Position numbers and translations under genes: made by a program
Origin: Nitrosopumilus sp. Nsub
GTDB taxonomy: Archaea > Thermoproteota > Nitrososphaeria > Nitrososphaerales > Nitrosopumilaceae
NCBI RefSeq assembly: GCF_001541925.1
Contig: NZ_LQMW01000022.1
Coordinates: 1-33,242 of the forward strand
Length of the DNA: 33,242 nt
Direction: 5' to 3'
Shown: one piece after another, positions 1-18,371 of the stretch
How the letters are laid out: each line of letters begins with the position of its first letter
How positions within the stretch are numbered: position 1 is the first letter of the stretch
Notes under the pieces: model-generated
Database searches by the model: none
What the model saw: only the letters and a program-made list of their open reading frames with translations
What the model was told of the DNA's origin: nothing

Positions 1-15
1 ATATGAGTGGGCAAT

Positions 16-449
16 CTAAATAAATAGATGGATGAGAAACATAGCGAGCGTGAAGGTGAGGGAGAGAAAGCTGACTAGTGCAGGTGCACCACTAAATCCA
101 ATCACCTCCTGTACAATAGCCTCTCCAGATACAGCTGCACTAGCAAACTGGAGTACTTGTGGAGGTAGGACATCAGCAGCGATATTTGGGTTATTGATCC
201 AGCGAGCAATCCGGTCACTTTCTTCACCACAGAACATTTCATCGTCGGGCGTGCGTGCCTCGAGAGTGATTTGAAGGTTCTCGGATGAAGTGAAGGACAC
301 GTCTAGCTCACAACGATTGGTCGTTTCATCTGAAATAAAACCAGACTCTACGAGTAGTGCGATGAAATCATCAATGGTTCGGAGTCTGGGGTTGAGTTTC
401 ACATACTCTCCGAGACCTCTGAAGTCAATAGCTACGAAAATTATTCCAC
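16..449 (-). CDS. Terminal coding exon of a eukaryote-type spliced gene fragment; ends in small residues (SGA) plus a hydrophobic tail, resembling a GPI-anchor/TM signal
   Basis: Part of ORF 16..459(-). It is preceded on the minus strand by a polypyrimidine tract plus AG (TATAATTTTTTTTGTGTCCAG, AG at 451-450). The reading frame continues in phase from exon 615..840. G+C is clearly higher than in the rest of the window. Confidence 0.55.
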
Positions 450-614
450 CTGGACACAAAAAAAATTATAGCGATAATCAATCAATCAGAACCAATTGTT
501 TTCTACTGCTGTACACTGAAGCAAAAAGGACAAACATAGTTACCATGGCAATGCTACAGTAAAGGTATGGGAGATGGTAGCAATGCAAGCAAATATAAAA
601 GTTTATGTACTCAC
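450..614 (-). other. Putative spliceosomal intron (165 nt, GT-AG)
   Basis: Donor TGTG|GTGAGTAC, with GT at 614-613. Acceptor ...TTTTTTTTGTGTCCAG| ends at 450. Splicing joins G(615)+GT(449-448) into a Gly codon and keeps the frame of both flanking ORFs. Confidence 0.55.
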
Positions 615-840
615 CACAAAGAGCACAGCATCCTTCCTCCGGTCTCACAAGGTGACGACAGTTGGAAATGTTATAAACACATCGTCTAGCTCGACTCACT
701 CTCTGACAGACACCCTCAGGGGTCTCTTGTGGGTCTTCATCATCTACATCACACTCTCCGTAGTAGTCCACACGAGCATTGCCAGATTGACTGCGGAGGA
801 CACAGATGTTCTCATATGTAACACCATCAGTTCCACACAC
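615..840 (-). CDS. Internal exon of a eukaryote-type gene: C-terminal half of a Kazal/follistatin-like motif followed by a Cys-rich stretch
   Basis: Translation is VCGTDGVTYENICVLRSQSGNARVDYYGEC...CQRVSRARRCVYNISNCRHLVRPEEGCCALCG. It is preceded by the acceptor CTCACTCCTACAG| ending at 841 and followed by the GTGAGT donor. The rest of ORF 478..840 is intron read-through. Confidence 0.6.
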
Positions 841-885
841 CTGTAGGAGTGAGTTTAGATCATACTGATTTTAATTTGGATTCAC

Positions 886-1428
886 CTAGGTACCTAATTT
901 AATTTTGCAAACCAGACTGTTTATCACAATCACCACTTGTCCAACACAAGCACCTTGTAAGGATGCTCTGTTTACTGAATATGTAATTTCTGTTGGAATA
1001 TCAGAACCAATGATTTTCATGATTTTTGCATCTATATTTTTAGATTCTCTTTCAATATCAACTTCCACTTCAAGTATTCCTGTTGAATCATCAACACCTA
1101 ATTTATGAAGAGCAAGTCCAATTTCTTGTAATCTATCCATAGCAAATTCCATTTTTTGCATATCTGCATCAGATATTTCTGCAATCGGTAGTTTGGGGAT
1201 AACTTCATCCAGTTGAGCAAAGAGAGAATCTATTTTTCTTTCATTTGCCATAATCAAAGGAATAGTTGAATCTTTTCCAACCATTTCTAATTGTTGATTA
1301 TCTACCTTTAGTTTGAGGATTTGAGTACCTATTTCATCTTGTAGTTCTGCTGCTGTTTTGTCTTCGGCAAATGTAGAGCTTATTCCACTAATAGAAATAA
1401 TCAATGCAGTAATTAACCCAGCAAACAA
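886..1428 (-). CDS. Hypothetical secreted/membrane-anchored protein
   Basis: 180-aa ORF with an N-terminal hydrophobic signal-like segment (ILFAGLITALIISISGISSTFA) resembling that of ORF 2139..3011. The track start is TTG. The true start may lie a few codons upstream (KKTQT precedes it in frame). Confidence 0.55.
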   Translation of the reverse strand: MFAGLITALIISISGISSTFAEDKTAAELQDEIGTQILKLKVDNQQLEMVGKDSTIPLIMANERKIDSLFAQLDEVIPKLPIAEISDADMQKMEFAMDRLQEIGLALHKLGVDDSTGILEVEVDIERESKNIDAKIMKIIGSDIPTEITYSVNRASLQGACVGQVVIVINSLVCKIKLGT

Positions 1429-1810
1429 GATTGTCTGTGTCTTTTTTGCCGTACTAGTAAAAATGAATGATTTTTGTTAAAAGGTAAAGTGTTGTACAAT
1501 TGACAATTAATTCAAAAAAACATTCCTCATGGAATCATTCCTTGATCAATGCTCTTTTTGACAAACAATTACGGTTAATCGTAATTTAGTAACTTTCTAG
1601 TTATTGGGGATTTGTATATCAGGATAAACCCCAAAACCAAAAACGGAATTCCAATCCAACCATGGTGTCACAAATTTTTGATAGTTTTTTATTCAAATAG
1701 TTTTTACGGGTATTTTTAAAAAATGATTTTCTTAAGAATAACACTATATCGATTACAGAAAAATAATATTAATAAAAATACGGAAAAATGTTAGAATCAG
1801 TAAATTTACA

Positions 1811-2128
1811 TTATTGTTTTTTGTTAGTTTTACGTTTCTCCACATATCTATTAATTAAAATTGCTACAGGTATCCAAAATAACAAATTGAAAATTACAAG
1901 AAAAATAGGATAAATTACATTATCAGAATCAATATTTTGGAAATCATAATTTTTATTGAAATCTATAATCATAAAATCAAAAAAAATATACATCACAGAT
2001 ACTATGGGATTAAGGTAAAACATCATTCCTGGAATTGGGTATGTGTTCCCTGTTAGCATAGGAAAAAAACTAATTAAAATTCCATAAAGAGGAAGTCCAA
2101 TTAATAGTGAAAAGATTGGTTTAATCAT
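1811..2128 (-). CDS. Small polytopic membrane protein (105 aa)
   Basis: ATG start, about 3 hydrophobic helices and a basic C-terminus. It lies 10 nt downstream of the secreted-protein gene 2139..3011, so is probably co-transcribed. Confidence 0.6.
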   Translation of the reverse strand: MIKPIFSLLIGLPLYGILISFFPMLTGNTYPIPGMMFYLNPIVSVMYIFFDFMIIDFNKNYDFQNIDSDNVIYPIFLVIFNLLFWIPVAILINRYVEKRKTNKKQ

Positions 2129-2138
2129 AAAAAAATAC

Positions 2139-3011
2139 CTAAGGTACTGAGACCGTAGATAGTGATGGGTTTGTATCCGATGTATTCATCATATGATTCC
2201 ATGTATTGCTAACATAGATGGTAGCGCCTGGAGAATAGGTTTTTGTTGCTGTTAAATGACAGCCAACAATGCTTCCAGCTAGACAATCGAAGTCATTTGA
2301 TGAACTATAAGTATCATCAAATATTATTTGATTATTGTTTTTAATATCAAAGGATTCAATATCCATAATTCTTTGATACCAGCTTATTCTTAAAGCATCA
2401 TAGAAAGCATCAAGATATGGATGGTCTTCATCAAAGAAATACAAAGTATATGTTCGTACACATGTTGAAGAATTATCACTATACACTACCCCAAATAAAT
2501 CGTTGTCGCCATTAAAAGAATATCCCCCATAGGAGCCTCCATTAATGTCAATTTGGACTTGTTTGTAATTTGGATGTGTTGTACTAGGACACGCAGCTTC
2601 GGCCATCTGGATACCAAATGCTTCTAGAAAATCAATGTTTAATGGTTTAACTGATTTATTTTCCTTCGCAATTTTTAATTTTTCATCTTTTACAGTTTCA
2701 CGAAAAATATAGTCAATTGCGCCTTGAATTTCATCCTCAGTTAATTCAGTCGTATTTGTTTCAATACGAATTTCTTCTATTGATTCTCTAAGTAATTTGT
2801 CATATTTGGCCTTTATTTGTGTGGATTTTTCATCATATGATTTTTTATCTTTCTTTGTATCTTTCAACCAAGTTTTTACATCATTTTTGAGATCTTGTTT
2901 TGTTTCTTTATCATAGCTCTTTGCATCTGCCATTTGCATTCCTGAAAATGGCAGAATCATTGCAACAATGAGTCCAGCAAACAATATCGTTTTGATGTTT
3001 TTTGTCGTCAT
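2139..3011 (-). CDS. Secreted protein: signal peptide, Lys-rich helical region and a conserved C-terminal DEDHP/WNH domain of unknown function
   Basis: 290-aa ORF with ATG start and signal-like N-terminus. The C-terminal ~150 aa are paralogous to ORF 3913..4389 (shared YTLxFxDEDHP, DIESF, Y[VI]SN[TV]WNH[AM]M). Confidence 0.75.
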   Translation of the reverse strand: MTTKNIKTILFAGLIVAMILPFSGMQMADAKSYDKETKQDLKNDVKTWLKDTKKDKKSYDEKSTQIKAKYDKLLRESIEEIRIETNTTELTEDEIQGAIDYIFRETVKDEKLKIAKENKSVKPLNIDFLEAFGIQMAEAACPSTTHPNYKQVQIDINGGSYGGYSFNGDNDLFGVVYSDNSSTCVRTYTLYFFDEDHPYLDAFYDALRISWYQRIMDIESFDIKNNNQIIFDDTYSSSNDFDCLAGSIVGCHLTATKTYSPGATIYVSNTWNHMMNTSDTNPSLSTVSVP

Positions 3012-3077
3012 TAAAATTTACATAAATTATGAGATTAATAAAAAATAGTTCAATCCAAATTGAACAAATCTTTATAT

Positions 3078-3538
3078 TCACATATTCACATGTCTCGCAT
3101 GAACTGCAAAGAAAGAACTCAATAGAATCGATATCGGTAATCCATTTTGTTCCACTGCAACATGTATTTTTGTGCCTGTTATCTTCTTGAATCCATCATA
3201 TCCTATTACGTTGCCCCTTTTTTGGCAGAAATTGATGATGAATCGATGGATACTTTCTGCAGTTGCAGTTTGCCGGACTGATGAGCTGATTTTATTATTC
3301 CAGATAGAATATTTTTCCAAATTTCTTTTTGCTGCCAGTTTTGCAGTCTGAGATGCACAGTGGATTTGCTACCATATCTTTTTGGCATTTCACTCCACCT
3401 GCATCCAGATATCAAAACATAGATGATTCCATTTATTGTTGTGCGGTCATCACATCTTGGTCTCCCAGTTCTATCTGGTTTTGGAAGGTGCTTGTGTATT
3501 CCTTCCCATTGTGAGTCTGTTATTTCTTGATATTTCAT
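3078..3538 (-). mobile_element. Truncated IS5-family (IS427/IS1031-like) transposase remnant with a -1 frameshift site; the DDE catalytic portion is missing
   Basis: ORF 3206..3538 has the typical N-terminal region (ITDSQWEGIHKHLP...GRPRCDDRTTINGIIYVLISGCRWSEMP...STVHLRLQNWQQKEIW). ORF 3078..3320 continues in the -1 frame (GYDGFKKITGTKIHVAVEQNGLPISILLS). The frames overlap at A AAA AAG (T6 at 3218-3223 on the plus strand). Homology stops near 3117, with no DDE motifs after it. Confidence 0.7.
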
Positions 3539-3640
3539 GGAATGGTATCAATTGAGATAATTCTTAGATCAAGATGATCGTAATTATTTTACAAAATGAT
3601 CGGTTTTAGGATGACTTGGTTAATTCAAAGTCATTCTAAA

Positions 3641-3925
3641 TTAGGATTTTAAATGATTGAATATCATGCTAGCTAACACAATTCCAAAAAGTAGTATGCT
3701 TGCAACATATGCAAATTTGTATTTTTTGTAAATTAGATATCCTAAAAAGATTCCAAATACTCCAATTACAAAATGTATTGTAATTGCTACTTCACCACTA
3801 AATTTTACACCATAAAACCAAGTTTCAGCATTAATTATAATTGGAATGATCCAAAGACCATAAAACAACCAATGTAAAACAGATATTGTTTTTCGAATAA
3901 AAGAAAAAAGAACTAGGTAGTCCAT
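3641..3925 (-). CDS. Small polytopic membrane protein (94 aa)
   Basis: ATG start and 3 hydrophobic helices. It overlaps the stop of the upstream paralog gene by 13 nt, the same gene order as 2139..3011 / 1811..2128. Confidence 0.6.
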   Translation of the reverse strand: MDYLVLFSFIRKTISVLHWLFYGLWIIPIIINAETWFYGVKFSGEVAITIHFVIGVFGIFLGYLIYKKYKFAYVASILLFGIVLASMIFNHLKS

Positions 3926-4329
3926 GTAGTCATAGACATTCCTGAATTTTCATTTGTTGTATCCATAGCATGATTCCATACATTACTGATATAGACTGGG
4001 GAGCCACTAGAATATGATCTTACCTTGTTTCCATGTTGACCATAGAATTCTGCAAAGGTCTTGTCATTATCCCAGATACCATTGAAGTTTATGCCTGCAC
4101 TTGTGACATAAAATGATTCAATATCGGTAGTTCTACCATATTGTACAGATCTCCAATTATCCCAAAAATCATCCCACCATTCATCTGGGTGGTCTTCATC
4201 ATCGAATGTTAGAGTATAGGTTACTTTAGTGGACGTATATGAAGTTGACAAGGAAGAAAAGTCGTTACCTCCATCAATATCATAATCATTGCTTGAACTA
4301 TCAGTTCCAGAACCACCCGTTCTATCCAC
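3913..4329 (-). CDS. 5'-truncated paralog of the DEDHP/WNH secreted-domain protein (possible pseudogene; no signal peptide)
   Basis: The track ORF starts at GTG 4329, but the frame is open and still homologous up to 4389 (AYASGNPYPITSWKQVTVD versus AEAACPSTTHPNYKQVQID). There a TAA (4392-4390) ends it. No N-terminal signal or helical region is present. Confidence 0.5.
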   Translation of the reverse strand: MDRTGGSGTDSSSNDYDIDGGNDFSSLSTSYTSTKVTYTLTFDDEDHPDEWWDDFWDNWRSVQYGRTTDIESFYVTSAGINFNGIWDNDKTFAEFYGQHGNKVRSYSSGSPVYISNVWNHAMDTTNENSGMSMTTWTT

Positions 4330-4574
4330 TGTTACTTGTTTCCAAGATGTGATAGGATATGGATTTCCAGATGCATATGCTGCCTGGTGTTATGTAACAA
4401 TAGCAGAAGATTATGGTACTACAACTGGTTTATCATGCAATAACAAATCAGGTCAAGGCGGATTAGTTACTACTGATGCTCTATATGGAACATCAAATAG
4501 CAACACATCTGAATTCCAAGGTGTTACAGGAATAATCCTCTAACCTTTTTTACTTTTTATGGGGACTACAAAAA

Positions 4575-4967
4575 ATGACTAATATGAAAAAAGCTGTGTT
4601 AATTTCAACACCATTAATCGCTGTCACAATAGTTTTAGGATCCGTTTGGATCTATGCAATAAATGAAACTAATGAATACGAGAGTAATTTAGATGACTTG
4701 ATTTTAGTAAAAAATTGTGTACCAAGCTTATTTGATGATTCACCAAAACCAGACATTCCAATACAAAATGATACCCACAAATTCAATCATGTTATTTGTG
4801 AATGGCAAAAGATAGAAAAATATCCAAACACCAACATTGATTGTATTCCTGGACAAAACAAATGGGTAACGGGAGAAGAGATTAGAAACACTACCCACAT
4901 CTACAACAAACACAAATGTTTATGGGAAGAAGAATTTAGTTGGACTGCAGAATATGGCAAACCCTAA
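4575..4967 (+). CDS. Membrane-anchored/secreted Cys-containing hypothetical protein
   Basis: 130-aa ORF with ATG start and an N-terminal TM/signal (AVLISTPLIAVTIVLGSVWIYA). It contains an internal duplicated motif (TH-x-[FY]N-x3-C-x-W). Confidence 0.65.
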   Translation: MTNMKKAVLISTPLIAVTIVLGSVWIYAINETNEYESNLDDLILVKNCVPSLFDDSPKPDIPIQNDTHKFNHVICEWQKIEKYPNTNIDCIPGQNKWVTGEEIRNTTHIYNKHKCLWEEEFSWTAEYGKP

Positions 4968-5048
4968 AAACTTTGGCAACCTCCAAATTATCATAATGGA
5001 CTAGTACTGTACTCTGATAATTTTTATTGCAACCCTACGGATGGCGGA

Positions 5049-5252
5049 ATGCCTGATCATTGCTATTCTCTTGAAAAGATAGTGTTTGGTGATAGCAACA
5101 AAAAGAGAGAAACAAGATGGAGATTATATCCCGGCGGATCGGGATGGACACTTCCAGAAGATTCTACACTTACATCTATCTACAAAGAAGCTGAATTTGG
5201 AATTCCACCACGTGATTTGCAAGCAATGCTTGATGATAATCTCTTAAACTGA
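5049..5252 (+). CDS. Small hypothetical ORF, possibly the downstream part of 4575..4967 interrupted by an in-frame TAA
   Basis: It is in the same frame as 4575..4967. The 27 codons between TAA(4965-4967) and ATG 5049 are stop-free. Confidence 0.4.
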   Translation: MPDHCYSLEKIVFGDSNKKRETRWRLYPGGSGWTLPEDSTLTSIYKEAEFGIPPRDLQAMLDDNLLN

Positions 5253-5254
5253 AA

Positions 5255-5533
5255 TTATTCTACAGATACACCATTCCAAAATGCCACCATTCCTTTAATT
5301 TTGGAGGCAGCATCATTTGGGGTTTCATAGTACCATGCACAGTCTTTGTTTGTCTTACCATTGATGGTAACTGAATAATAATTTGCCATTCCTTTCCAAC
5401 CACAAAAAGTAGTCAAGTCAGTTTTTGTGAAATATTCTTTTTTTATAGAATCAAACGGAAAGTAATGATTTCCTTCAACCACTACAGTGTCATCACTGTC
5501 TGCAATTACTATTCCATTCCATGTTGCTTGCAT
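5255..5533 (-). CDS. DUF427 domain protein
   Basis: MQATWNGIVIADSDDTVVVEGNHYFP...TFCGWKGMANYYSV...AWYYETP...VAFW matches the DUF427 pattern. ATG at 5533 is preferred over the TTG at 5566 used by the track. Confidence 0.75.
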   Translation of the reverse strand: MQATWNGIVIADSDDTVVVEGNHYFPFDSIKKEYFTKTDLTTFCGWKGMANYYSVTINGKTNKDCAWYYETPNDAASKIKGMVAFWNGVSVE

Positions 5534-5590
5534 GGAAGCATTACAAAATATACCATATTTAATCAAATCTAAAATTATAAGATTATTTGA

Positions 5591-7033
5591 TTAAATTTTT
5601 GCTTTGACTTGATCTCGTTTTGTAAAGTCTGGTTTTATTCCAAGAGAATCATAGTTTCCAGATGAACATGTAAAGCACATAGAGTCCTTTGGCATGCCAA
5701 CTGCATCAGCTAAATTCTCAGCATCATTATACCCCAAAAAGTCAACACCAATACTTTTTCTGACCATTTCAGTTATTTCTTCAGTAGTCATTTCTTTACC
5801 ATCAGTGTAAGTTGCAAGTTCCTCTTGAGATGGGAAATCAATTCCAGCATAACAAGGATAGTTAATTTGTGGGTATGTAATTAACATACTAATTTTTTTA
5901 GCTCCTGCTCTTCTGAGTGCTTTGATTATGGCTTTAGAACTTGTTCCCCTAACCAAACTATCATCAATTACTACAACATGTCTATCTCGAATAATTTCAC
6001 TAATTGGAATAATCCATCTGTTAATTTCTACTCTGTCACTTTGGTGAGGTTCAATGAAACTTCTCAAAGGACCTTTCTTGCTGTATCTGTCTTTGAGTAG
6101 GCCTTCATCAAAGGATACGCCTAGTTCTTGTGCGTAACCCAAGGCTGCAGGTCTTGCAGAATCAGGGACAGGAATTACCAAATCAGCATCTTTAATTGGG
6201 AATTTTTTTGCCATAAACTTTCCAATATTTTTTCTAGAGATGTAGATGTTACGTCCTTCCATCATACTAGATGGATGTGCAAAATAAGTAAATTCAAATG
6301 AACAATGTGCACGGGATTTATCATCAGAGAACTTTTCAGTCTCTAAACCATTTTTACTTAATTTAATTAATTCACCAGGAGTTACATCTCGTTGTAACGT
6401 TGCAGCAACTGCAGTTACAGCTGCAGATTCAGAAGTTACAATGTATGTATCATCAGACTCTTTATGTCCCAAAACCATTGGACGAAAACCTTTAGGATCT
6501 CTTGCAGCATAAACAGAATTATCATCAGAAATAAAAGTAAAACAATACGAACCAACCATTTCATTTTTTAAAATTGATAGTGCTTTTCCCATTTCACCGT
6601 TTTCAGAAATTAATGAAACCAATCTTTCTGCAGCGACCAAAGTATCACTTGCATTTTGAGGAGTAAAAGAACATCCTCCAACTAAATTGGATAGTTCTTG
6701 TGCATTTGCAATTGTTCCGTTATGTGCAACACAAAGATCTTTTACTTTCAATGGTTGTGCATTTGCCAAAGTACTTGTACCCATTGTAGAGTATCTTACA
6801 TGTCCAATTACACAAGGTGATGCATACTCTTGTGCAATTTTTTTAAATTCTGATGAGGAGTGCGAAACTAATCCAACTTTTTTGAATGGTGGTTTGTTAG
6901 GTACTGCAAACCCCCAAGCTTCTTGTCCTCTATGTTGTAAAGCACGTAATGCATCAAATACCATAGGTACAACATTCTTACCAGAAAGACTGTAAATTCC
7001 AACCACACCACAATTTTCTTTTACTTTAGGCAC
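5591..7033 (-). CDS. purF: Amidophosphoribosyltransferase
   Basis: 480 aa with the N-terminal nucleophile motif NCGVVGI, a Gln-amidotransferase class II domain and a PRTase motif (VVVIDDSLVRGTS). GTG start overlapping the purL stop. Confidence 0.95.
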   Translation of the reverse strand: MPKVKENCGVVGIYSLSGKNVVPMVFDALRALQHRGQEAWGFAVPNKPPFKKVGLVSHSSSEFKKIAQEYASPCVIGHVRYSTMGTSTLANAQPLKVKDLCVAHNGTIANAQELSNLVGGCSFTPQNASDTLVAAERLVSLISENGEMGKALSILKNEMVGSYCFTFISDDNSVYAARDPKGFRPMVLGHKESDDTYIVTSESAAVTAVAATLQRDVTPGELIKLSKNGLETEKFSDDKSRAHCSFEFTYFAHPSSMMEGRNIYISRKNIGKFMAKKFPIKDADLVIPVPDSARPAALGYAQELGVSFDEGLLKDRYSKKGPLRSFIEPHQSDRVEINRWIIPISEIIRDRHVVVIDDSLVRGTSSKAIIKALRRAGAKKISMLITYPQINYPCYAGIDFPSQEELATYTDGKEMTTEEITEMVRKSIGVDFLGYNDAENLADAVGMPKDSMCFTCSSGNYDSLGIKPDFTKRDQVKAKI

Positions 7034-9191
7034 GTAAAACCATCTCCCTTAACGAATTAAACCAAGTCTCTTGTGCTTTATCAACGCTTAGATCAATTAT
7101 TGGTTTAGAATCATTACTAAATTGAATGGAATCACCAGTAAACTCACCAATTACTGAATACGATACATTGTGTTTTTTCAATATTTCCTCTAGATTTTGA
7201 ATATTTTCTTTTTCAAATGTGATTAAATATCTTGAATGACTTTCTGAAAATAGAATTTTATCAGAATCTAATTTTTCACCAGGTATTTTTTCCAATGAAA
7301 TGTTACATCCAATTTGATTTGTCATACAAAGTTCAGATATTGCAATTGCCAATCCACCTTTAGAACAATCATGTGCAGATTTGATTAATTTATTTTCAAT
7401 TATTTCCAATACAGAACTCATATTTTTCTTTGATTCTGTAAAGTCAACTGAAGGGCATTTTCCTCCAATAAATTTATGAACGTATTCAGAATATTCTGAA
7501 CCGCCCAATTCATCTTTAGTTTCACCAATCATGATTAATGAATTTCCAGAAGTAATTTTTTGAATCCTCAAAGGTTTTTTGTCAATTAAACCAATAACAC
7601 CAATTACGGGAGTTGGTTTGATTGGACCATCAGATGTTTCATTATACAAACTTACTTTTCCACCAACACAAGGAATTTCAAAGTCCTTTGCAAAATCTGT
7701 CAACCCCTTAAGTGATTCCAAAAATGTCCAAAAGATTTCAGGATCATTTGGATTTCCAAATTGAAGGTGATCTAGCATTCCAATTGGTTTTGCCCCAGTA
7801 CAAACAACATTTCTACATGCTTCTTCAAAACAACCAATTGCACCTTCTCGAGGATTAATGTAACATTGTTTTGGATTACCGTCAATCTTAATTGAAAGAG
7901 ATTTTCCATTATCTAGCCTCAAAACAGATGCATCATGACCAGGTTTTGTAACAGTTCTAATTCCCACTTCATGATCATATTGACTATAAACCCAAATCTT
8001 ACTTGCAATATTTGGAGACCCAAGTAATTTCATCAAGGTTTCAGAATAATCAGATAGTTGTGGGAAAGATTTTGCTGTTTCAAGATTTTCAAGATAGACA
8101 GGTTTTCTTGAAGGCAAATCAAGTAAAGTTGCATTTGCAACAATATCTGTAGAAATATTTGCAATTGAAGTTTCACCTTTTTTTACATGCATTTTATTGT
8201 CAAATGTTACGTGTCCAATTACAGAACATTCGATTCTAAATTTCTCACAAATTTTTCGTAATTTAATTAATTTTTCATTATCAGTAACAATTAACATTCT
8301 TTCTTGAGATTCAGAAATCATTATTTCATCTGAATGCATGTCAGATTCACGGATATGTACTTTTTCTACATCCATTTCAATTCCAATATCCAAAGCATCA
8401 GCAGTTTCAGATACTGCACAAGATAATCCACCACCACCAAGATCTTTCATTGCATGAATAAGTTGTTCATTACGTGCTTCCAAAATTGCTTCAATGATTA
8501 ATTTTTCAATAAAAGGATCAGGAATTTGAACAGCTGAGCGGTCTTCAGTTTCTAATGAATCAGATGCAAATTGAGAACCACCAATACCATCTCTTCCAGT
8601 AGCACCGCCTAAGAGAACAACCAAATCACCTTTTTTTGCATGGTTTTTAATCAAATTTTCTTTTTTACCAAATCCAATTGCAGCAACATCAACCATCGCA
8701 TAATTTTTGTAGCACTCATCAAATTCAACTTCACCCCCAACAGTTGGAATACCTAAACAATTTCCGTAATCAGCTATTCCAGTTACCGCATTTTTAAAAA
8801 GCCATTTTGCATGTTTATCATTTTCAATATTTCCAAAACGCAATCCATCAAGAAGTGCAATAGGACGAGTACCAGCAGATAAAATATCTCGAATTACTCC
8901 TCCAACACCAGTTGCGGCACCACCATAAGGCTCAACAGCAGAAGGATGATTATGGCTTTCAATGTGAGCTGTTACCACATAGCCATCACCCACATCTAAA
9001 ACTCCAGAGTCATATCCTTTTTCATTAATCACTAATGGACCATCCATTGGTAACATTTTGAGATGTTTTTTAGAAGATTTGTAAGAACAGTGTTCAGACC
9101 ATTCTGCTGCAACAATTTGTAATTCAGTTGAAGTAGGATTGCGACCAATCTTGGTTTTTAGTTCTTCTAATTCATGTGATTCTAAACTCAA
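7026..9191 (-). CDS. purL: Phosphoribosylformylglycinamidine synthase subunit II
   Basis: 721 aa with duplicated AIR-synthase-like domains (SHNHPSAVEPYGGAATGVGGVIRD; DLGGGGLSCAVSE). There is a 4-nt overlap with purQ. Confidence 0.95.
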   Translation of the reverse strand: MSLESHELEELKTKIGRNPTSTELQIVAAEWSEHCSYKSSKKHLKMLPMDGPLVINEKGYDSGVLDVGDGYVVTAHIESHNHPSAVEPYGGAATGVGGVIRDILSAGTRPIALLDGLRFGNIENDKHAKWLFKNAVTGIADYGNCLGIPTVGGEVEFDECYKNYAMVDVAAIGFGKKENLIKNHAKKGDLVVLLGGATGRDGIGGSQFASDSLETEDRSAVQIPDPFIEKLIIEAILEARNEQLIHAMKDLGGGGLSCAVSETADALDIGIEMDVEKVHIRESDMHSDEIMISESQERMLIVTDNEKLIKLRKICEKFRIECSVIGHVTFDNKMHVKKGETSIANISTDIVANATLLDLPSRKPVYLENLETAKSFPQLSDYSETLMKLLGSPNIASKIWVYSQYDHEVGIRTVTKPGHDASVLRLDNGKSLSIKIDGNPKQCYINPREGAIGCFEEACRNVVCTGAKPIGMLDHLQFGNPNDPEIFWTFLESLKGLTDFAKDFEIPCVGGKVSLYNETSDGPIKPTPVIGVIGLIDKKPLRIQKITSGNSLIMIGETKDELGGSEYSEYVHKFIGGKCPSVDFTESKKNMSSVLEIIENKLIKSAHDCSKGGLAIAISELCMTNQIGCNISLEKIPGEKLDSDKILFSESHSRYLITFEKENIQNLEEILKKHNVSYSVIGEFTGDSIQFSNDSKPIIDLSVDKAQETWFNSLREMVLRA

Positions 9192-9868
9192 TTTTCAATT
9201 CCTGCCTTTTTCAATAATGATTCAAAAATTAATGATGAGGGTTCGTTATCTTGAGGATTTATTTCAGATTCTACAGCTCTTTCAGGATGAGGCATCATGC
9301 CAACAACATTTCCATCTTCATTACAGACACCTGCAATTTGATTTAAGGAACCATTTACAACTTTATCATATTTGAAAACAATTTGGTTTTTTTCTTCAAG
9401 CGTTTTCAATGTGTCATCATCAACATAATAACGTCCTTCGCCATTTGCAATAGGAATTGGTATCTTTTGATTAAGTTCAAATTGATTTGTAAAAGGTGTT
9501 TTATTATTTTCAACGATCAAATTTGTCCATTCACACATAAAATTCAGAGAATCATTTTTCAGTAAGACGCCGGGCAACAATCCAGATTCTACAAGAATTT
9601 GAAATCCATTACAAACACCCAATATTGGAAGTCCTTTTTCAGCAATTTTTTTTACATCTTGAATGATTGGGCTATTTGCAGCAATTACACCTGCTCGTAG
9701 TCTATCACCATAAGAAAATCCGCCTGGCAATACAACAGCGTCAAGATTTTCAGGAAGGGGTTTGTCATGCCAGCAATATTGAGCATTGAGATTAAAAACG
9801 TCAGATAACACATGATACATGTCTCGATCGCAATTACTTCCTGGAAAAACTACAACTCCAACATTCAC
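9188..9868 (-). CDS. purQ: Phosphoribosylformylglycinamidine synthase subunit I (glutaminase)
   Basis: 226 aa with VVVFPGSNCDRD, the catalytic GVCNGFQIL motif and MMPHPER. GTG start. Confidence 0.95.
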   Translation of the reverse strand: MNVGVVVFPGSNCDRDMYHVLSDVFNLNAQYCWHDKPLPENLDAVVLPGGFSYGDRLRAGVIAANSPIIQDVKKIAEKGLPILGVCNGFQILVESGLLPGVLLKNDSLNFMCEWTNLIVENNKTPFTNQFELNQKIPIPIANGEGRYYVDDDTLKTLEEKNQIVFKYDKVVNGSLNQIAGVCNEDGNVVGMMPHPERAVESEINPQDNEPSSLIFESLLKKAGIEN

Positions 9869-9947
9869 AATAGTTTTTAGTTTCAGAGTTATTTAATTTG
9901 AGCCCAGCCTGATACAATTTTTAAGTGAATAATTTGGGGGGATCGCT

Positions 9948-10364
9948 ATGGCAAAAGTTAGAGATATTATGCAAAAAAATGTAATTACAATCGGAAATAC
10001 GAAAAAAGCACAAGATGCAGCAGTTATTCTTAAAGAAAAAGAGATCAGTTTTCTAGTAGTCGTGAATGAAGGAAAACCAGTAGGAATAGTTTCTGAAAGA
10101 GACATCGTGAGAAAAATTGTTGCAGATAACAACGAGTCACAGACAACCCCATTAGAAACAATAATGTCAAAAAAATTCAAATGGGTTGAACCTAATGCAT
10201 CAATTGAATCTGCTGTTCAAAAAATGTTAAACAATAACATTAGACGCTTAGTTGTTTTAGACAATGATGATCTAGCAGGAGTAATTACTCAAACAGATTT
10301 AACAGAATTTTTACGAAGTAAAATTTTGATAAATGCCACTATAGAAAATATTGAATCAGATTAA
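9948..10364 (+). CDS. CBS domain pair protein
   Basis: 138 aa with two CBS motifs (VRDIMQKNVITI...ISFLVVVNEGKPVGIVSERDIV; IMSKKFKWVEP...IRRLVVLDNDDLAGVITQTDL). Confidence 0.85.
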   Translation: MAKVRDIMQKNVITIGNTKKAQDAAVILKEKEISFLVVVNEGKPVGIVSERDIVRKIVADNNESQTTPLETIMSKKFKWVEPNASIESAVQKMLNNNIRRLVVLDNDDLAGVITQTDLTEFLRSKILINATIENIESD

Positions 10365-10621
10365 ACATCAAATACATCAATTTTTACTACACTAACCATA
10401 GGATTGTAAATTCGTAATTCATCGCAAATTTCCTTAATTTTTGATTGGGCAGTTTCTTTATCAGTTTCATCAATTGAGAATTTTAACATTTTTGCAGTTT
10501 TAATTTGAGATATATTTTTGTGAGTACCTTTCATAACCAAATCATTTAAGATTGTTTTTCCTTCAGGATCACTGATTCCAGGCTTATTTTCAATTGTTAC
10601 ATGTACTTGATAGTTTGTCAT
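10361..10621 (-). CDS. purS: Phosphoribosylformylglycinamidine synthase subunit PurS
   Basis: YQVHVTIENKPGISDPEGKTILNDL...KFSIDETDKETAQSKIKEICDELRIYNPMV is a typical PurS. ATG at 10621 is preferred over the upstream TTG (10636). Confidence 0.85.
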   Translation of the reverse strand: MTNYQVHVTIENKPGISDPEGKTILNDLVMKGTHKNISQIKTAKMLKFSIDETDKETAQSKIKEICDELRIYNPMVSVVKIDVFDV

Positions 10622-10801
10622 ATATTCAACTAACAAAATACTGATTAATCTATCTTCCGAATAATTTTAAAAATTACAACAATCCACTTTGTTCTAAAAA
10701 TGATTTTAGTTTTTCTTTTGTGTTTACATCATCGAATTTATCGTTCTGACTAATAGAAACAATTCATGTCCATCTAAAATTAAATTGTGAGGACCCAAAT
10801 C

Positions 10802-11104
10802 TCAAGCGTTATCAATTTTCATATCATCAATCAAAGTAAGAATTTGATCATTTGTTGAATATACTCCATCATTTTCTAAAAATGTTCTTAAATCAATACC
10901 TTGAATCCAAGTTCTGATATCATTCCTTGAACCGTAATCAATGACAATTTCATCAAAAGTTGATTTAATATCAATTTGAGTATCAGGACCAAATTCATCA
11001 CCATATTTTTGAGTACCATGCCATGGACGATCAATTGTTTTTGATGAGGTATTTTTTAACAACCACATTTTTCTTTCAAGTTTTTTATTTGTAGAATCAC
11101 CCAA
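10802..11104 (-). CDS. Hypothetical ORF in a decayed region (may be a gene fragment)
   Basis: 100-aa ORF with a TTG start and no recognisable motifs. It is flanked by non-coding or degraded sequence. Confidence 0.3.
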   Translation of the reverse strand: MGDSTNKKLERKMWLLKNTSSKTIDRPWHGTQKYGDEFGPDTQIDIKSTFDEIVIDYGSRNDIRTWIQGIDLRTFLENDGVYSTNDQILTLIDDMKIDNA

Positions 11105-11135
11105 ACCAGATTCATTTTTGTTTAAGAGTTGAGGT

Positions 11136-11615
11136 TCAAATTTTTTTTAAATTCAGTTTTTCAATTTTAAATCGACGAGAGTTCTTTGTTGCAGAATTTT
11201 CTAATGAGTTTGGATGTTCAAAGAAACAAAATGAATACATAGAAACTATGGTTTCAAGAACATCTTGAAAAGGATCATCAAAGTGATGTACCACATTCAA
11301 AGCCAAAATAATATCAAAATGCTGAACTTCTTTCAAATTTTTTAGATGTTTCAAATTCATTTGTTTTTCCAAAAGGAGAATATTTCGATTATTGTTTTTT
11401 TATGAGTCCAATAAACAACGTTTAGAATGACTCTCCACAATAACAAAAACTCCAGAAAAATCTTCAGACAATCTAAATGTGAAATAACCTTCAGTTGCAC
11501 CTAAATCTAACAGATATTGGGCGATTAAATTTTTGTAAAAAATTTAAAATTTCTTTACAACGTTATTCAGATTCCCGATATCCAGAAGAAATTGTTTTTC
11601 CTTAAATTCTAACAT
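11136..11615 (-). pseudogene. Class I SAM-dependent methyltransferase pseudogene (one frameshift, one in-frame TAA)
   Basis: Three pieces read on the minus strand. First, MLEFKEKQFLLDIGN... from ATG 11615. After a frame change comes ...NLIAQYLLDLGATEGYFTFRL... (SAM motif I-like), ending at TAA 11402-11400. The same frame then continues into ORF 11136..11372 (...FDIILALNVVHHFDDP...). Confidence 0.6.
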
Positions 11616-11913
11616 CGTTGTAAGTATCAATTTTTATGGATTTATTTTGAAAATTTGGTTTTTTGTAATTTTATTGATTCATCAGAATTTTTAAGAATTG
11701 ATGTTAATTGTTCTAGATTTATTTTATTATTTTGTATTTCATTAAAATAAAAATCCAAATCATCCAACGTAGTTTCTCTATCTAAAAATTTCAAATATTA
11801 TTTGCGAATGGATTTTCGTATCTATAACAAATAATTTCATCAGGCTAGTAATTTAGATTTCTAGAGTCAAGTAGGGTTAGATAGTTATACCAGAATATTT
11901 GAACATATTACAT

Positions 11914-12384
11914 ATGGCAAGAAAAGACAGAATGAGATATTGGAAAATTACCTCAGAAGAAATGAATGATTTCAATTATGATGAAACTAAATTACTAAAT
12001 TGGGAAATCAAATGCATTAGAGAACCCGAAGATGAAGCACATTTTATTGGTGTTTTTATGTACAGAAACGGCACAGCTTATGACTATGAATCAGTTAAGG
12101 GAATTTGTTATTTCCACAACAACATAGATAGAAAAGAACTTCCAGAAATTACCAAATTTTTACAAGGAAAATTTAACGGAAAAGAAATGGAAAAAGGAGA
12201 TAGAATATTTTTGAAAGATTCAGACCAAATTTTCTCCAGTAAGGATATTGGAACCCTGGCAAGAGATATGGAAACAAAATTCAATACAAAAGCAATTATT
12301 TCTTTAGAATTTGAAGATATTTCGCCAGAAGCATTAAAGGAATCAGGCATGCCCGAAGCAAAACTTTTACCAATTCCAAAATAG
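11914..12384 (+). CDS. Hypothetical protein
   Basis: 161-aa track ORF. ATG at 11914 is preferred over TTG 11899. No recognisable domain. Confidence 0.6.
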   Translation: MARKDRMRYWKITSEEMNDFNYDETKLLNWEIKCIREPEDEAHFIGVFMYRNGTAYDYESVKGICYFHNNIDRKELPEITKFLQGKFNGKEMEKGDRIFLKDSDQIFSSKDIGTLARDMETKFNTKAIISLEFEDISPEALKESGMPEAKLLPIPK

Positions 12385-12437
12385 TCGATTTTTAAAAAAT
12401 ATACATTTTCATACATCATTGCACAAAACGAGATTAG

Positions 12438-13229
12438 ATGTCAAATTTAGAAAGCATTAATGCACATCTAGAGGAATTAAGAAAAAGATTACTTAGAGTA
12501 GTTTTAGTAATTGGAATTATTACAGTTGTGGTTTTGACATTTCACGCAGAACCAATTAACATTGGAGAAGTTACATTATACTACCCATCACCAGATCCTC
12601 AAAACAACATTGCAGCTCAAATTACAAATCACATGAGAGAAAATCTAGTTCCTTCAGATGTACAGTTAATTCAAACTGCACCAGGACAAGCTTTCTTTGC
12701 TCAGATGTATGTTTCAGCATTAGTGGGAATGGTAATAGGAATGCCCGTAATAATAAAAGAATTTGTAGGATTTATCAAACCAGCATTAAAAGAAAATGAA
12801 ATTAATGTTAGTAGAAATATTTCATTGCCTGCGTTAGGATTGTTTGTTGCAGGATGTGTATTTTCATATAATTTTGTAATTCCATACATCTTAGAATTTC
12901 TGTATCGATATGGAGATTCAGCAGGACTAGTTACTTTCCTAAACGTGATGGAATTTGTAACTTTTGTATTACAATTTTTATTGGCATTTGGATTTTCTTT
13001 TCAACTTCCACTAATCATGTATGCAATATCCATGTCAGAGATGGTTGGAAAAGATTTTTGGAGAAAAAATGCAAGATATGCAATTGTCATTATCATAATT
13101 TTTGGTGCAATCATTACTCCCGATGGAACCGGAGTAACGATGATGTTTGTTGCAGGCCCAATGATTGGATTGTATTTTGCAGGCATGTTATTCATTGAGC
13201 GCAAACAAAGAGAAAAGTTGAACACTTAA
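12438..13229 (+). CDS. tatC: Twin-arginine translocase subunit TatC
   Basis: 263 aa with a 6-TM profile. It has a typical TatC N-terminus (HLEELRKRLLRVVL) and C-terminal part (AIITPDGTGVTM). Confidence 0.9.
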   Translation: MSNLESINAHLEELRKRLLRVVLVIGIITVVVLTFHAEPINIGEVTLYYPSPDPQNNIAAQITNHMRENLVPSDVQLIQTAPGQAFFAQMYVSALVGMVIGMPVIIKEFVGFIKPALKENEINVSRNISLPALGLFVAGCVFSYNFVIPYILEFLYRYGDSAGLVTFLNVMEFVTFVLQFLLAFGFSFQLPLIMYAISMSEMVGKDFWRKNARYAIVIIIIFGAIITPDGTGVTMMFVAGPMIGLYFAGMLFIERKQREKLNT

Positions 13230-13256
13230 ATCTGAAATCTGAGAAGTAGAGACATA

Positions 13257-13463
13257 ATGCTTGGAAGTACCGAAATCATTGTTTTAGTTGTTGTAATAGG
13301 AGTACTAATTTTTGGTGCTAAAAAAATTCCTGAACTGGCCAAAACATTTGGGAAGGCAAAGGGAGAATTTGAGAAAGGAAAGATTGAAGGAGATAAAGAA
13401 TTGAAGGATTTCAAAGGTAAAATTGATGAATCTCCTAAAGATAAAGAAGTAAAATCAGACTGA
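13257..13463 (+). CDS. tatA: Twin-arginine translocase subunit TatA/E
   Basis: 68 aa with an N-terminal TM followed by FGAKKIPELAKTFGKAKGEFEKG (TatA hinge and amphipathic helix). It lies directly downstream of tatC. Confidence 0.85.
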   Translation: MLGSTEIIVLVVVIGVLIFGAKKIPELAKTFGKAKGEFEKGKIEGDKELKDFKGKIDESPKDKEVKSD

Positions 13464-13928
13464 TTTTTCACACAAAGTAGTTAATTCATCCAACAATTTA
13501 GAATAATTTTCAATTAATTTAGATCTGTCCAATAGTTTTGGAATTTTCATTATCCCCATTAATTTCAAATCTACATCAATCAGAATTTTGGTTCCATCTG
13601 GAATTTCAATGAATTCTTGTCGGATGTAACTGCCTTTAGACTTCCCACCAATTACAAAAACTTCATGTAAAACAAAGGGTTTTGAAACATGTTTAGACAT
13701 TAAAAGAAATTCAATTTCACCTAGTTTGAAATGCTCTTCAACAACCGCAGTTTCTCCACGTACAGAACGAATACGAATTGATGGAAAAAATTGAGGAATC
13801 AGTTGTTCATGTTGTTCAAAATTAGAAAATATAGAAAATACATCTTTTCGTTTGGCATGAATGATTTTTTCTAAAGAAAATTTGGGCAATAGTATTTTAG
13901 AAGCTACCCCATCGAGGGTATAAATCAT
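13455..13928 (-). CDS. SRPBCC (START/polyketide-cyclase-like) family protein
   Basis: The ~150-aa alpha/beta pattern is compatible with Polyketide_cyc2-type proteins. The start is uncertain: ATG 13928 overlaps ubiX by 32 nt, and TTG 13886 is an alternative. Confidence 0.5.
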   Translation of the reverse strand: MIYTLDGVASKILLPKFSLEKIIHAKRKDVFSIFSNFEQHEQLIPQFFPSIRIRSVRGETAVVEEHFKLGEIEFLLMSKHVSKPFVLHEVFVIGGKSKGSYIRQEFIEIPDGTKILIDVDLKLMGIMKIPKLLDRSKLIENYSKLLDELTTLCEKSV

Positions 13929-14454
13929 GATCAATATCAAATTGATCAAGACATTTTCCTACACCATGATTTACAATATCCTCAATGGTTTTTGGTTTAG
14001 TATAGAATTCAGTAACAGGCGGTAAAATTATTACGTTCAGTCGAGATAATTTCAACATATTTTCTAAATGAATTGCAGATAATGGAGTTTCTCTTACCAT
14101 CAAAATCAGTTTTCTTGATTCTTTAATTGTTACACCAGCAGCTCTTGCAACTAAAGTGTCATCATATCCATTTGCAATTGCAGAAAGTGTTTTCATGCTA
14201 CATGGTGCAACAATCATACCGTTAATTCTATGAGTTCCACTTGAGACACTTGCAGCCATATTTTTTTCATCTGAAACAGAAGTTGCTAAAGATTTAACAT
14301 AATCTGGAGCATGTTCAGTTTCCATAGTAATACATTTTTCTCCCCATTCAGACATTACCAAATGTGTTTCAATGTTTAATTTTTTTAATACTTCAAGCAT
14401 TCTAATTCCATAAATTACACCAGTACTACCAGTAATTCCAATAATTAATTTCAT
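13897..14454 (-). CDS. ubiX: Flavin prenyltransferase UbiX
   Basis: MKLIIGITGSTGVIYGIRMLEVLK...HLVMSEWG...MIVAPCSMKTLSAIANGYDD is the canonical UbiX/Pad1 flavoprotein pattern. Confidence 0.9.
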   Translation of the reverse strand: MKLIIGITGSTGVIYGIRMLEVLKKLNIETHLVMSEWGEKCITMETEHAPDYVKSLATSVSDEKNMAASVSSGTHRINGMIVAPCSMKTLSAIANGYDDTLVARAAGVTIKESRKLILMVRETPLSAIHLENMLKLSRLNVIILPPVTEFYTKPKTIEDIVNHGVGKCLDQFDIDHDLYPRWGSF

Positions 14455-14591
14455 TGATTATTGTGGAAAATAGTAGTATTTAGAATAGACTCACTAAAGA
14501 AACATGTTTTAAGCAAAGTTAGTTTCATTTTCCATTACCTCCAATCTAAATTAAATAGTGATCAGATAAAAAGCATGATTTTTTGTTGAAA

Positions 14592-15767
14592 TCAAAATTT
14601 ACGCTTGAAAACAACAAAACCCAAAATTATTCCAATACTCACAACACCAATTACAATATACAAAGTTGTTAAATCATTACCAGATTCTTTTGAGGTAAAT
14701 TTTGTTACATCTCCTAGCGGAGTTTCAGATATACGTATTATCTTATCATTATTGCCATTTGCAGTAAGAAGATATAGATTTCCATCAGGGTCAATTTGAG
14801 CAGTTCGGATTCTACCAAATTCTCCCTCAAAAAATTTTTCTGTACCAATTAAAGAACCATCATCACCAATATCAACAACCATCAAATGTTCTCCACGAAG
14901 AGTTCCTACCAAAAATTTTCCATTAAAACTAGAAATTTTTTCTGAATCATAAAAAACCATTCCACTTGGAGCCCACGTCAACTGACCACTATGAGTAATT
15001 GGATTTACAAAATTTTCATCAGAGGAATTACCAACTATGTTTGGCCATCCATAGTTTTTACCTTTCAAAATAACATTTATCTCATCATGCCCATATCCTT
15101 GTTCACCAGAAGGACCATGTTCAGAAGATACAAACATTCCATCTGATGACCATGCCAATCCCTGAGGGTTCCGATGACCATAAGAAAAAACAGGACTAGA
15201 ATCAAATGGATTATCCTCAGGAATAGTTCCATCAGGATTAATTCTCAAAATTTTTCCTGCAAGTGAAGACAAATCTTGGGATAATCCCGGACTGATTGCA
15301 TCACCAGTTGAGACATACAATTTTTGATCTGGACCAAACTTTATTCTTCCACCATCATGCCAAGGTGCACCAGGAATACCATCAAGAATAATTTGTTTAT
15401 CCGTTAACTTGTCTTCATTTAATCTAAAACTGTAAACTTTGTTTTGATAAAATTCAAGTTCCAAATTTGTTTGATAAACGTAAATTTTTTTATTTTTTTC
15501 AAAATCAGGATGCAATGCAAGACCCAATGTACCACCTTCAACAGAACCACTTTTAGGGAATGTTTGAATTATTTTACCATCGCCAGATTCATTTATTTTC
15601 CAGATGCGACCATCCCTCTCCGTAAAGTAAATCTCACCATCAGGACCAAATACAATTTCCCAAGGATTGTTTAATCCATCCACAATTACGTCAGTATTCA
15701 ATTCAGCATTTACAGGGATCATTATTGAAAAAAAAGAAATTAAAAATATCACAAAGAGAAACTGCAT
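14592..15767 (-). CDS. PQQ-dependent sugar dehydrogenase (soluble glucose/sorbosone dehydrogenase family) with a signal peptide and a C-terminal TM anchor
   Basis: Motifs NPWEIVFGPDGEIYFTERDGRIW, HDGGRIKFGPDQKLYVSTGD, GKILRINPDGTIPEDNPF, SYGHRNPQGLAW and NYGWP. Hydrophobic N-terminus and C-terminus. Confidence 0.85.
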   Translation of the reverse strand: MQFLFVIFLISFFSIMIPVNAELNTDVIVDGLNNPWEIVFGPDGEIYFTERDGRIWKINESGDGKIIQTFPKSGSVEGGTLGLALHPDFEKNKKIYVYQTNLELEFYQNKVYSFRLNEDKLTDKQIILDGIPGAPWHDGGRIKFGPDQKLYVSTGDAISPGLSQDLSSLAGKILRINPDGTIPEDNPFDSSPVFSYGHRNPQGLAWSSDGMFVSSEHGPSGEQGYGHDEINVILKGKNYGWPNIVGNSSDENFVNPITHSGQLTWAPSGMVFYDSEKISSFNGKFLVGTLRGEHLMVVDIGDDGSLIGTEKFFEGEFGRIRTAQIDPDGNLYLLTANGNNDKIIRISETPLGDVTKFTSKESGNDLTTLYIVIGVVSIGIILGFVVFKRKF

Positions 15768-16070
15768 AATTTAATGAAAGTTTTTTTAGTTAAAACACTA
15801 TGCAATTAATTCAAAAAACGACTTCATATTTTTCATACATGAAATTTTTGATAAATGAAAAAAAGGAATTTAAAAAAATATGTTTTGGTTTTGATCGATA
15901 TTAGATTTGACCTTTTACCTTGAATATTTTCTTCATAGAGATTAAGCCTATGAATTGTAAGAAAAGGTATGTCCATAATTTCGCATTGTTTGAAATTTTA
16001 TCAAAAAAGATGCGTATTAATTGTAAACAAAAAGAAACCTAGTTTATTTCAAAAATAAATTTTTGGTAAA

Positions 16071-16217
16071 TCAAATATTTTCAGAAACATCTTGCTCAAT
16101 TGAATCATCAGATTCTTTTTCTAATTTTCTTCGTTTTATCCATAAGGATACACCACAAACAGCCATAGCAGTTAATAGAATCACACCTGCCATTTGTAAT
16201 TCTACAGAGTAAAACAT
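16071..16217 (-). CDS. Possible small single-TM protein (48 aa), below the ORF-track cutoff
   Basis: ATG..TGA ORF MFYSVELQMAGVILLTAMAVCGVSLWIKRRKLEKESDDSIEQDVSENI. It has one TM helix followed by a positive cluster, and is the only ORF in a 530-bp spacer. Confidence 0.3.
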   Translation of the reverse strand: MFYSVELQMAGVILLTAMAVCGVSLWIKRRKLEKESDDSIEQDVSENI

Positions 16218-16316
16218 GATTATTCTAATCAAGACATTTGAATAAAACATTATGGTTTTTATCGATCCAATAAATCAAAATTTTACATATATTAGATGCC
16301 AATATTTACGCATAAT

Positions 16317-17408: not shown

Positions 17409-17412
17409 AAAA

Positions 17413-17976
17413 TTATAAACTGTTTATTTTTCCAGTATGTGTTTTAAAATATTCTTGTAGTGCCACGTTTGAACGAACATCTTTGTATGAATCTAACATC
17501 ATTTCCATAATTCGATTTATATGATTTTGTAGTCGTTTAATTCGTTGTTGTGCAATAGGATGTTGTAAAATTCTGATTTTGTCAAAATGATCAATTCTGG
17601 AAATCACCATTGTAACTCGATTAATTTCTTCTTGAATGTGTTCGAGTAATTCCAATCCATCCTTTGTGAAACCAAATCTTCCACCATCACTCATCATAAT
17701 GGTAGGAGTTTTTTGGATCATCTCAATTTCATATTTTTGATAATCTAAAAAATTATCTAACATTAATGAAAATTGATCATGATTTTGTGGTTTATCTAGT
17801 TTTTTATAAAATAGATTATTTTTTAGAGTTCGAGATTCAAGAAATCCCATATAGACAAGTCTGTTAATTGATTCAATCACTTCAGATTCACTTCCACCAC
17901 ATCTTTCTACAATGTCTTTTTTTTCAATCCATTGTGAAGTACAAAATAGAATGTAATCATCATGAATTGTAACCAA
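17413..17976 (-). CDS. Winged-helix plus helical-domain protein (~190-aa putative transcription regulator family)
   Basis: 187 aa with a TTG start and no in-frame ATG nearby. The N-terminal wHTH-like segment is KKDIVERCGGSESEVIESINRLVYMGFLESR. Its architecture is shared with ORFs 26301..26867 and 30424..31005. Confidence 0.55.
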   Translation of the reverse strand: MVTIHDDYILFCTSQWIEKKDIVERCGGSESEVIESINRLVYMGFLESRTLKNNLFYKKLDKPQNHDQFSLMLDNFLDYQKYEIEMIQKTPTIMMSDGGRFGFTKDGLELLEHIQEEINRVTMVISRIDHFDKIRILQHPIAQQRIKRLQNHINRIMEMMLDSYKDVRSNVALQEYFKTHTGKINSL

Positions 17977-18057
17977 TGTATTTTGATTGAATATAGTGGA
18001 TTTCTAATATGTTTAGATGAAAATGAAATGAATCAAGAGCATATGGAAAATGAAAAG

Positions 18058-18363: not shown

Positions 18364-18371
18364 CCAAATCC

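Follow-up and report, generated by a model that had tools for sequence, protein, structure and literature searches.

Sponge RECK-like gene fragment at the end of a Nitrosopumilus contig: a very probable product of chimeric metagenome assembly

How does a contig of the archaeon Nitrosopumilus sp. Nsub (TaxID 1776294) come to carry, at one end, what reads as part of a spliced, eukaryote-type gene? The window analyzed here is a stretch of 33,242 nucleotides that is included in a 91,269-bp contig of this organism, and its PurL, 180-aa, 105-aa, and 290-aa ORFs, together with a transposase fragment, match RefSeq Nsub proteins exactly. The original prediction, made from the letters alone, left two options, a chimera produced in assembly and a genuine junction between domains. 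An intact host locus, a break in composition, and the lack of support for the joint now strongly favor the first, and we put at roughly 93% the probability that the contig end is chimeric, with a fragment of a sponge RECK-like gene joined to a Nitrosopumilus contig by metagenome assembly.

Nsub was binned from a SPAdes 3.1.0 assembly (HiSeq) of whole sponge tissue, and the HiSeq contigs were then supplied as --trusted-contigs for a MiSeq re-assembly of sponge-cell-enriched and prokaryote-enriched fractions, comprising mixed eukaryotic and prokaryotic DNA; CheckM contamination of Nsub was 0% (PMC5361782). The genome (LQMW00000000) is mentioned in PMC7848895 and PMC9289680 and is in use for comparing sponge Thaumarchaeota. 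We compared the window with an independent, third-party MEGAHIT reassembly, ERZ922811 (k=127), of run SRR1802789 from the same BioProject (PRJNA275362), labeled "sponge metagenome". This reassembly provides a 6415-bp contig (L001) and a 728-bp contig (L004), one for each side of the joint. An 839-kb contig from a different ENA assembly (L002) serves as a relative of the first. The features at the left end of the window are as follows.

1..15, minus strand: start of the 3' UTR (15 nt), sponge RECK-like gene; 100% identical to L001 3997..3983
16..449, minus strand: terminal exon, GIIFVAIDF...SGAPALVSFLSLTFTLAMFLIHLFI, with stop codon TAG at 18..16 and a GPI-signal-like tail
450..614, minus strand: predicted spliceosomal-type intron of 165 nt, with a GTGAGT donor at 614..609, a T8 run, and a CAG acceptor at 452..450
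615..840, minus strand: penultimate exon; a Kazal-like domain, C-terminal half only (VCGTDGVTYENIC...GEC), and then a Cys-rich stretch ending CCALCG
841..853, minus strand: last 13 nt of the upstream intron (CTCACTCCTACAG), an orphan acceptor; identical to L001 3145..3157
854..861, no strand assigned: 8 nt, TTTAGATC, right after the breakpoint; in neither L001 nor L004
862..885, minus strand: archaeal 3' flank of ORF 886..1428; covered by L004 with 1 mismatch near 878
886..1428, minus strand: complete archaeal ORF of 180 aa, secreted/hypothetical (WP_067960105.1); the first Nitrosopumilus gene past the joint

The left piece contains a GT-AG intron at 614..450. On the minus strand, its donor reads TTTGTG/GTGAGTAC, with the exon end at 615 and the GT at 614-613, and a pyrimidine tract leads to an acceptor, TTTTTTTTGTGTCCAG, whose AG occupies 451-450 and from which the next exon runs on at 449. 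Both sites lie where the original prediction had placed them (exon end 615, intron end 450). Removal of 614..450 keeps the frame: the terminal exon enters in phase 1, with G615 and GT449-448 together giving Gly, such that ...EEGCCALCG-GIIFVAIDF... is read through to the TAG at 18..16 as a 219-aa product. The phase-preserving splice from 615 to 449 had been foreseen, as had the second acceptor, ending at 841, followed by the C-terminal half of a Kazal motif. Positions 840..615 (minus strand) encode VCGTDGVTYENICVLRSQSGNARVDYYGEC...EEGCCALCG, where Kazal_1 (PF00050) scores 24.7 bits (cut-off 21), covering profile positions 16-49 only; Kazal_2 (PF07648) reaches 21.5 bits (cut-off 22.8). The window contains no complete Kazal domain, since the motif starts there at VCGTDG and the C-x4-C-x4 segment lies upstream, being found only in an L001 exon (2666..2837). 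It likewise lacks the remainder of the ∼320-nt upstream intron and all upstream exons.

L001 supplies these missing parts. It is 100% identical to window 1..853, intron and UTR included, and continues at both ends, running 2418 bp beyond window position 1, which itself falls within sponge DNA, and 3144 bp past window position 853. The identity ends exactly between 853 and 854, where the window reads GAGTGAG/TTTAGATC and L001 reads GAGTGAG/AGAGACAG; the left piece, previously taken to extend to 885, is therefore shorter by this measure. Upstream of the 13-nt intron end, L001 continues as ...CTGTCTCT, where the window differs, through the rest of the ∼320-nt intron and into an exon ending ...GECDREECDGGL/GTAAGT (ECDREECDGGL/GTAAGT). 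The N-terminal Kazal cysteines, which the original prediction had expected in an upstream exon, are found in L001, carried by the exon at 2666..2837, and farther upstream lie exons with Thyroglobulin-1, VWC/FnI_RECK-like, and two more Kazal-like modules.

Comparison of L001 with L002 yields eight colinear blocks of 74-92% identity, separated by unalignable spacers of differing length, a signature of exons and introns. The two exons of the window follow this pattern: the penultimate exon is 91.5% identical to L002 9427..9662 and the terminal exon 87.6% identical to L002 10062..10513. In contrast, the intron 450..614 cannot be aligned with L002, and the gap between the exon blocks there is 399 nt in L002 vs 155 nt in L001. 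Related ORFs occur on contigs of 0.2-2.2 Mb, and all homologues lie either on such contigs or on sponge-metagenome contigs. Thus, the reading of the left end as a spliced, eukaryote-type fragment is borne out by an identical contig that carries the rest of a multi-exon gene, and by the RECK homology described below. As judged from these alignments, window 1..853 corresponds to the predicted last two exons of a RECK-like gene with the intron between them, the final 13 nt of the intron before these, and a 3' UTR stretch of 15 nt, and its origin is best explained as the nuclear genome of the host sponge (Suberites sp.). Downstream of this gene, at a distance of about 1.6 kb (L001 5612..5941), we also note an ORF whose beginning resembles a signal peptide (MTIVPLTAACMCILAVALAQ...) and which is ∼68% conserved in L002; this ORF probably represents exon 1 of the neighboring host gene.

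To identify the gene, the exons of L001 were joined into a reconstructed product of 533 aa, which was used as query. Residues 89-476 of this product are colinear with RECK 554-915 (PDB 8tzp_C, E=9.8e-15), the penultimate exon of the window aligning to about residues 765 to 829 and the terminal exon to about residues 824 to 915. RECK was found only with this longer reconstruction; a PDB search with the 219-aa window product alone returned only generic Kazal matches. The alignment is gap-free across the 615/449 splice (CCALCGGIIFVAIDF vs CCPLCAGMLRVLFD in RECK of human/mouse type). Continuity of RECK at this point, together with conservation of the exons and not of the intron in L002, argues that the splice signals are more than chance and, at the level of homology, confirms the predicted 615/449 splice. 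In the reconstructed protein, Kazal_2 scores 49.6 bits in 3 stretches, and FnI_RECK gives a weak 26.8 bits, below its cut-off of 30. Amnionless (PF14828) was considered as an alternative identity and rejected, as its 26 bits vs a cut-off of 30.4 (23.6 in a longer construct) reflect a Cys-rich/stalk likeness only.

RECK is GPI-anchored and contains Kazal motifs. The tail of the window product looks like a GPI-attachment signal: S-G-A (N-G-A in homologues) is followed by ∼20 uncharged hydrophobic residues that run to the stop codon, and the last 25 aa contain no charged residue in 7 homologues. This SGA with a hydrophobic tail directly at the stop had been remarked upon in the window alone, and the pattern is common to the 7 homologues. 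With RECK, the sponge gene shares the order of an FnI/VWC-like module, Kazal-like domains, a CC-x-LC-(A/G)G motif, a C-terminal domain, and a hydrophobic C-terminal tail. In contrast to RECK, it has a Thyroglobulin type-1 domain upstream, and the available upstream DNA yielded neither the N-terminal cysteine-knot modules nor the FZ module of RECK. On L002, the upstream ORFs called in prokaryote style, which are a poor proxy for exons, gave no CC or FZ matches. Because of the thyroglobulin module and the absence of the N-terminal RECK modules from the available upstream DNA, the gene would be better named RECK-like than RECK; the window holds only its last ∼219 codons.

Base composition changes abruptly at the joint. 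The greater G+C richness of the left ∼850 nt, visible by eye in the original prediction, corresponds to a GC content of 0.448 at 1..850 vs 0.314 at 886..33242; for the sponge piece as delimited here it is 0.449 vs 0.314±0.040 for the archaeal remainder, with about 0.46-0.49 in both exons and 0.355 in the intron. The tetranucleotide comparison that had been proposed as a check places the left piece outside all archaeal tiles: its correlation to the archaeal remainder is 0.36, below 149/149 tiles (minimum 0.48), and its correlation to sponge contigs is 0.48.

One other part of the window departs in composition. Within the archaeal sequence, 18372..20972 (minus strand) is the sole stretch with a GC of 0.41-0.43, and its tetranucleotide correlation to the remainder is low (0.48-0.58). 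It encodes an 866-aa secreted protein with an FN3 domain and long G/S/T-rich repeats, whose exact sequence is absent from the searched protein collection. A second foreign piece at 18.4-20.9 kb was considered and rejected in favor of an FN3-containing, G/S/T-rich archaeal surface protein.

The window right of the breakpoint is Nitrosopumilus DNA, encoding purF/L/Q/S, a purP-type DUF1246/DUF1297 protein, tatC, a ubiX-like protein, GSDH, TrkH/CBS, and aEF-2; there are no tRNA or Rfam matches in the whole window. The archaeal ORF 886..1428 does adjoin the eukaryotic fragment, as originally described, but its start does not face the junction: the ORF is on the minus strand, and it is the stop codon that faces it. 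Among JGI metagenomes, the 180-aa protein has one distant relative, a 369-aa protein on L014 to whose C-terminal part it is 56% identical; the C termini of the two end equivalently, so the C terminus of the 180-aa ORF is complete. A scan of GTDB species genomes found no relative of this protein. On this side, L004 matches the window over 862..1589, ending 8 nt before the joint, with an archaeal tip that reads ...GATCTAAA. Close to that end (window ∼878), in the 24 nt between stop codon and contig end, a single base is different between L004 and the window (GTGAGTCC vs GTGAATCC), which hints at strain heterogeneity or a low-coverage error beside the joint.

Each half can thus be found apart in its own context, the sponge half fully, as L001 runs through the breakpoint, and the archaeal half partly, as L004 ends at 862. 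No contig of the ERZ922811 reassembly spans 853 and 854, and none offers an alternative archaeal continuation left of 862. The absence of a spanning contig is weak evidence, because the archaeon is fragmented there into contigs of 0.7-6 kb. A real joint at genome coverage would be expected to branch L001 and to carry L004 up to 126 nt into sponge sequence at k=127; L001 is unbranched and L004 lacks any extension into sponge sequence, which favors a chimera. Independent contigs from other runs cover 1463..3021 only. A further proposed check, a search for the same junction elsewhere, found no copy of the 44-nt joint sequence in JGI metagenomes. At the joint itself we found no shared k-mer, and a search for repeats or microhomology returned chance-level short matches only. 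The CTGTCTCT bases beyond the breakpoint in L001 equal the 8 nt with which the Nextera read-through adapter begins. Adapter trimming as the cause of the breakpoint was nevertheless rejected: CTGTCTCT is part of the intron's CT-rich pyrimidine tract, and the side that is retained does not fit trimming.

These observations bear on the possibility that the Nitrosopumilus symbiont very recently took host nuclear DNA, the intron-containing RECK-like 3' end, into its genome, which we regard as highly unlikely. Such an event would account for the presence of the joint in the deposited contig and for the loss of archaeal sequence in both assemblies within 8 nt of the same place, and a variable island with a transposase fragment is a possible landing place for foreign DNA. 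Set against this, the 853 bp are 100% identical to the host allele, intron and UTR included, and show no compositional amelioration. The breakpoint lies within an intron, such that no functional unit was carried over, and beyond the sponge piece no return to archaeal DNA was observed. Neither the branch in L001 nor the extension of L004 exists at k=127, the joint was not found elsewhere (in JGI metagenomes or, for the spliced protein, in GTDB species genomes), and the assembly method is prone to chimeras.

The reverse case, sponge nuclear DNA with a large archaeal insert acquired from the symbiont, is less probable still, as the joint itself is all that speaks for it. The archaeal part is no less than 32 kb long, made up of intact and closely spaced housekeeping genes (purF/L/Q/S, purP-type DUF1246/DUF1297, tatC, aEF-2), and it matches archaeal contigs of the sample at 99.95% identity. 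In the ERZ922811 reassembly, L003 matches 1614..3021 and L005 matches 4795..10997. It was binned at archaeal coverage, with a completeness of the bin estimated at nearly 100% (PMC5361782), and the host gene is uninterrupted in L001.

The least probable reading, that the two minus-strand ORFs are ordinary archaeal genes with splice-like signals arising by chance, is that of RefSeq; it draws on an ORF (16..459) with 147 open codons, which two annotation pipelines called, and is already refuted: RECK aligns across the splice, conservation is limited to the exons, an upstream exon is present in L001, and homologues occur only on sponge-metagenome or 0.2-2.2-Mb contigs. The original prediction had also named archaeal homologs covering both ORFs as a finding that would overturn the exon-intron reading; a scan of 185,579 prokaryotic species genomes (GTDB) found no relative of the spliced 219-aa protein, and the gene is homologous to RECK.

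For the preferred reading, a chimera, we envisage an in silico join between sponge nuclear DNA and the Nsub contig end, created while reads from host and symbiont were being assembled together. Archaeal sequence would end, or become unassemblable, ∼30 nt downstream of ORF 886..1428, in the variable island with its IS fragment. This island spans about 862..5230, with the joint at its outer edge, and includes an IS4/5 transposase fragment besides secreted/hypothetical ORFs; over this region the window loses synteny with another Nitrosopumilus MAG, and assemblies are expected to break in such a place. From the archaeal tip, the assembler may have extended into sponge sequence via a chimeric read, a false gap closure, or a path extension; that the assembler made the joint, and by which of these steps, we infer from the evidence above. 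The sponge piece is probably terminal on the 91-kb contig. The next L001 ORF left of the window piece is not among the Nsub proteins, and at the other end the aEF-2 gene is cut, running off the right edge of the window, which is therefore an arbitrary cut in a longer contig; both fit a sponge piece that is a short terminal tag.

The fragment would have no function in the archaeon, and the corresponding RefSeq gene would be an exon read as a prokaryotic ORF. The terminal exon stands in RefSeq as the "hypothetical protein" WP_156416077.1, of 128 aa (147 aa in an earlier annotation), and UniRef also holds it under the name Nitrosopumilus sp. Nsub. Host-DNA chimeras at the ends of MAG contigs are a close parallel: composition and taxonomy switch abruptly at the contig end, the foreign piece is identical to intact host sequence in the same sample, and mixed host and microbe reads were put through a single-genome assembler with trusted contigs, under a CheckM contamination of 0%. 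In nothing essential does the present case differ; it is unusual only in having propagated into RefSeq as archaeal WP_156416077.1. Genuine eukaryote-like proteins of sponge symbionts are encoded by complete, intron-less ORFs with the symbiont's own composition. The present locus resembles these in that a eukaryote-type domain is annotated in a sponge-symbiont genome, but it has an intron, a truncated domain, and host composition, and is 100% identical to host DNA.

Most likely, then, the left piece is contamination of a public archaeal genome and not new biology; as biology, the Nitrosopumilus genome is unremarkable and the RECK-like gene ordinary. Foreign pieces at contig ends are invisible to marker-gene contamination tests, and the 0% obtained here by marker genes shows how end-of-contig chimeras escape such checks. 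The practical value lies in data hygiene, as a flag for trimming of the contig at 853/861 and for withdrawal of WP_156416077.1, which surveys of eukaryote-like proteins or host-derived genes in symbionts could count as a symbiont-specific gene. Were the joint real, it would be an animal-to-archaeon DNA transfer caught in the act, within an IS-bearing variable island of a Suberites sp. symbiont.

The variable island has several further features. In the region 886..1464 (minus strand), the only start codon of the 180-aa ORF is a TTG directly at the hydrophobic core of the signal peptide. Upstream in-frame codons (…KKTQTI) would give a normal charged n-region, and there is no ATG, GTG, or TTG among them, so this may be an unusual start codon or a truncated gene. 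The adjacent segment 1633..3618 (L006 1..1986), comprising the 105-aa membrane ORF, the 290-aa secreted ORF, and the IS4/5 transposase fragment, is 99.3% identical (13 mismatches/1986) to the terminal 1986 bp of JAANXA010000027.1 from the Nitrosopumilus MAG GCA_018263505.1. The match is inverted with respect to the pur/tatC block, for which identity between both genomes is only 73-82%. On the left, the segment has a sharp boundary at 1633, and several contigs in Logan, assembled from other runs, end at 1633/1634. Its explanation is either mobility, with one segment occurring in multiple contexts and in more than one species, or a second chimera, in the GCA_018263505.1 MAG.

Within this segment, the 110-aa ORF at 3206..3538 (minus strand), named "transposase" in RefSeq, matches only the N-terminal DUF4096 part of IS4/5-family transposases and lacks the DDE domain, which marks it as an IS remnant. 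The 138-aa ORF at 3913..4329 (minus strand) shares a C-terminal region with the 290-aa ORF at 2139..3011 (minus strand), and the two contain DNA repeats (2415-2454/4183-4222 and 2339-2372/4101-4134). The 138-aa ORF falls into one cluster (>=90%) with a protein of 298 aa from another source and is probably a 5'-truncated paralogue beside the IS remnant. Farther to the right, 26000..31000 is very AT-rich (GC 0.23-0.29), and the ORFs 24909..25733, 26301..26867, and 30424..31005 have no Pfam match; this region may be another variable island.
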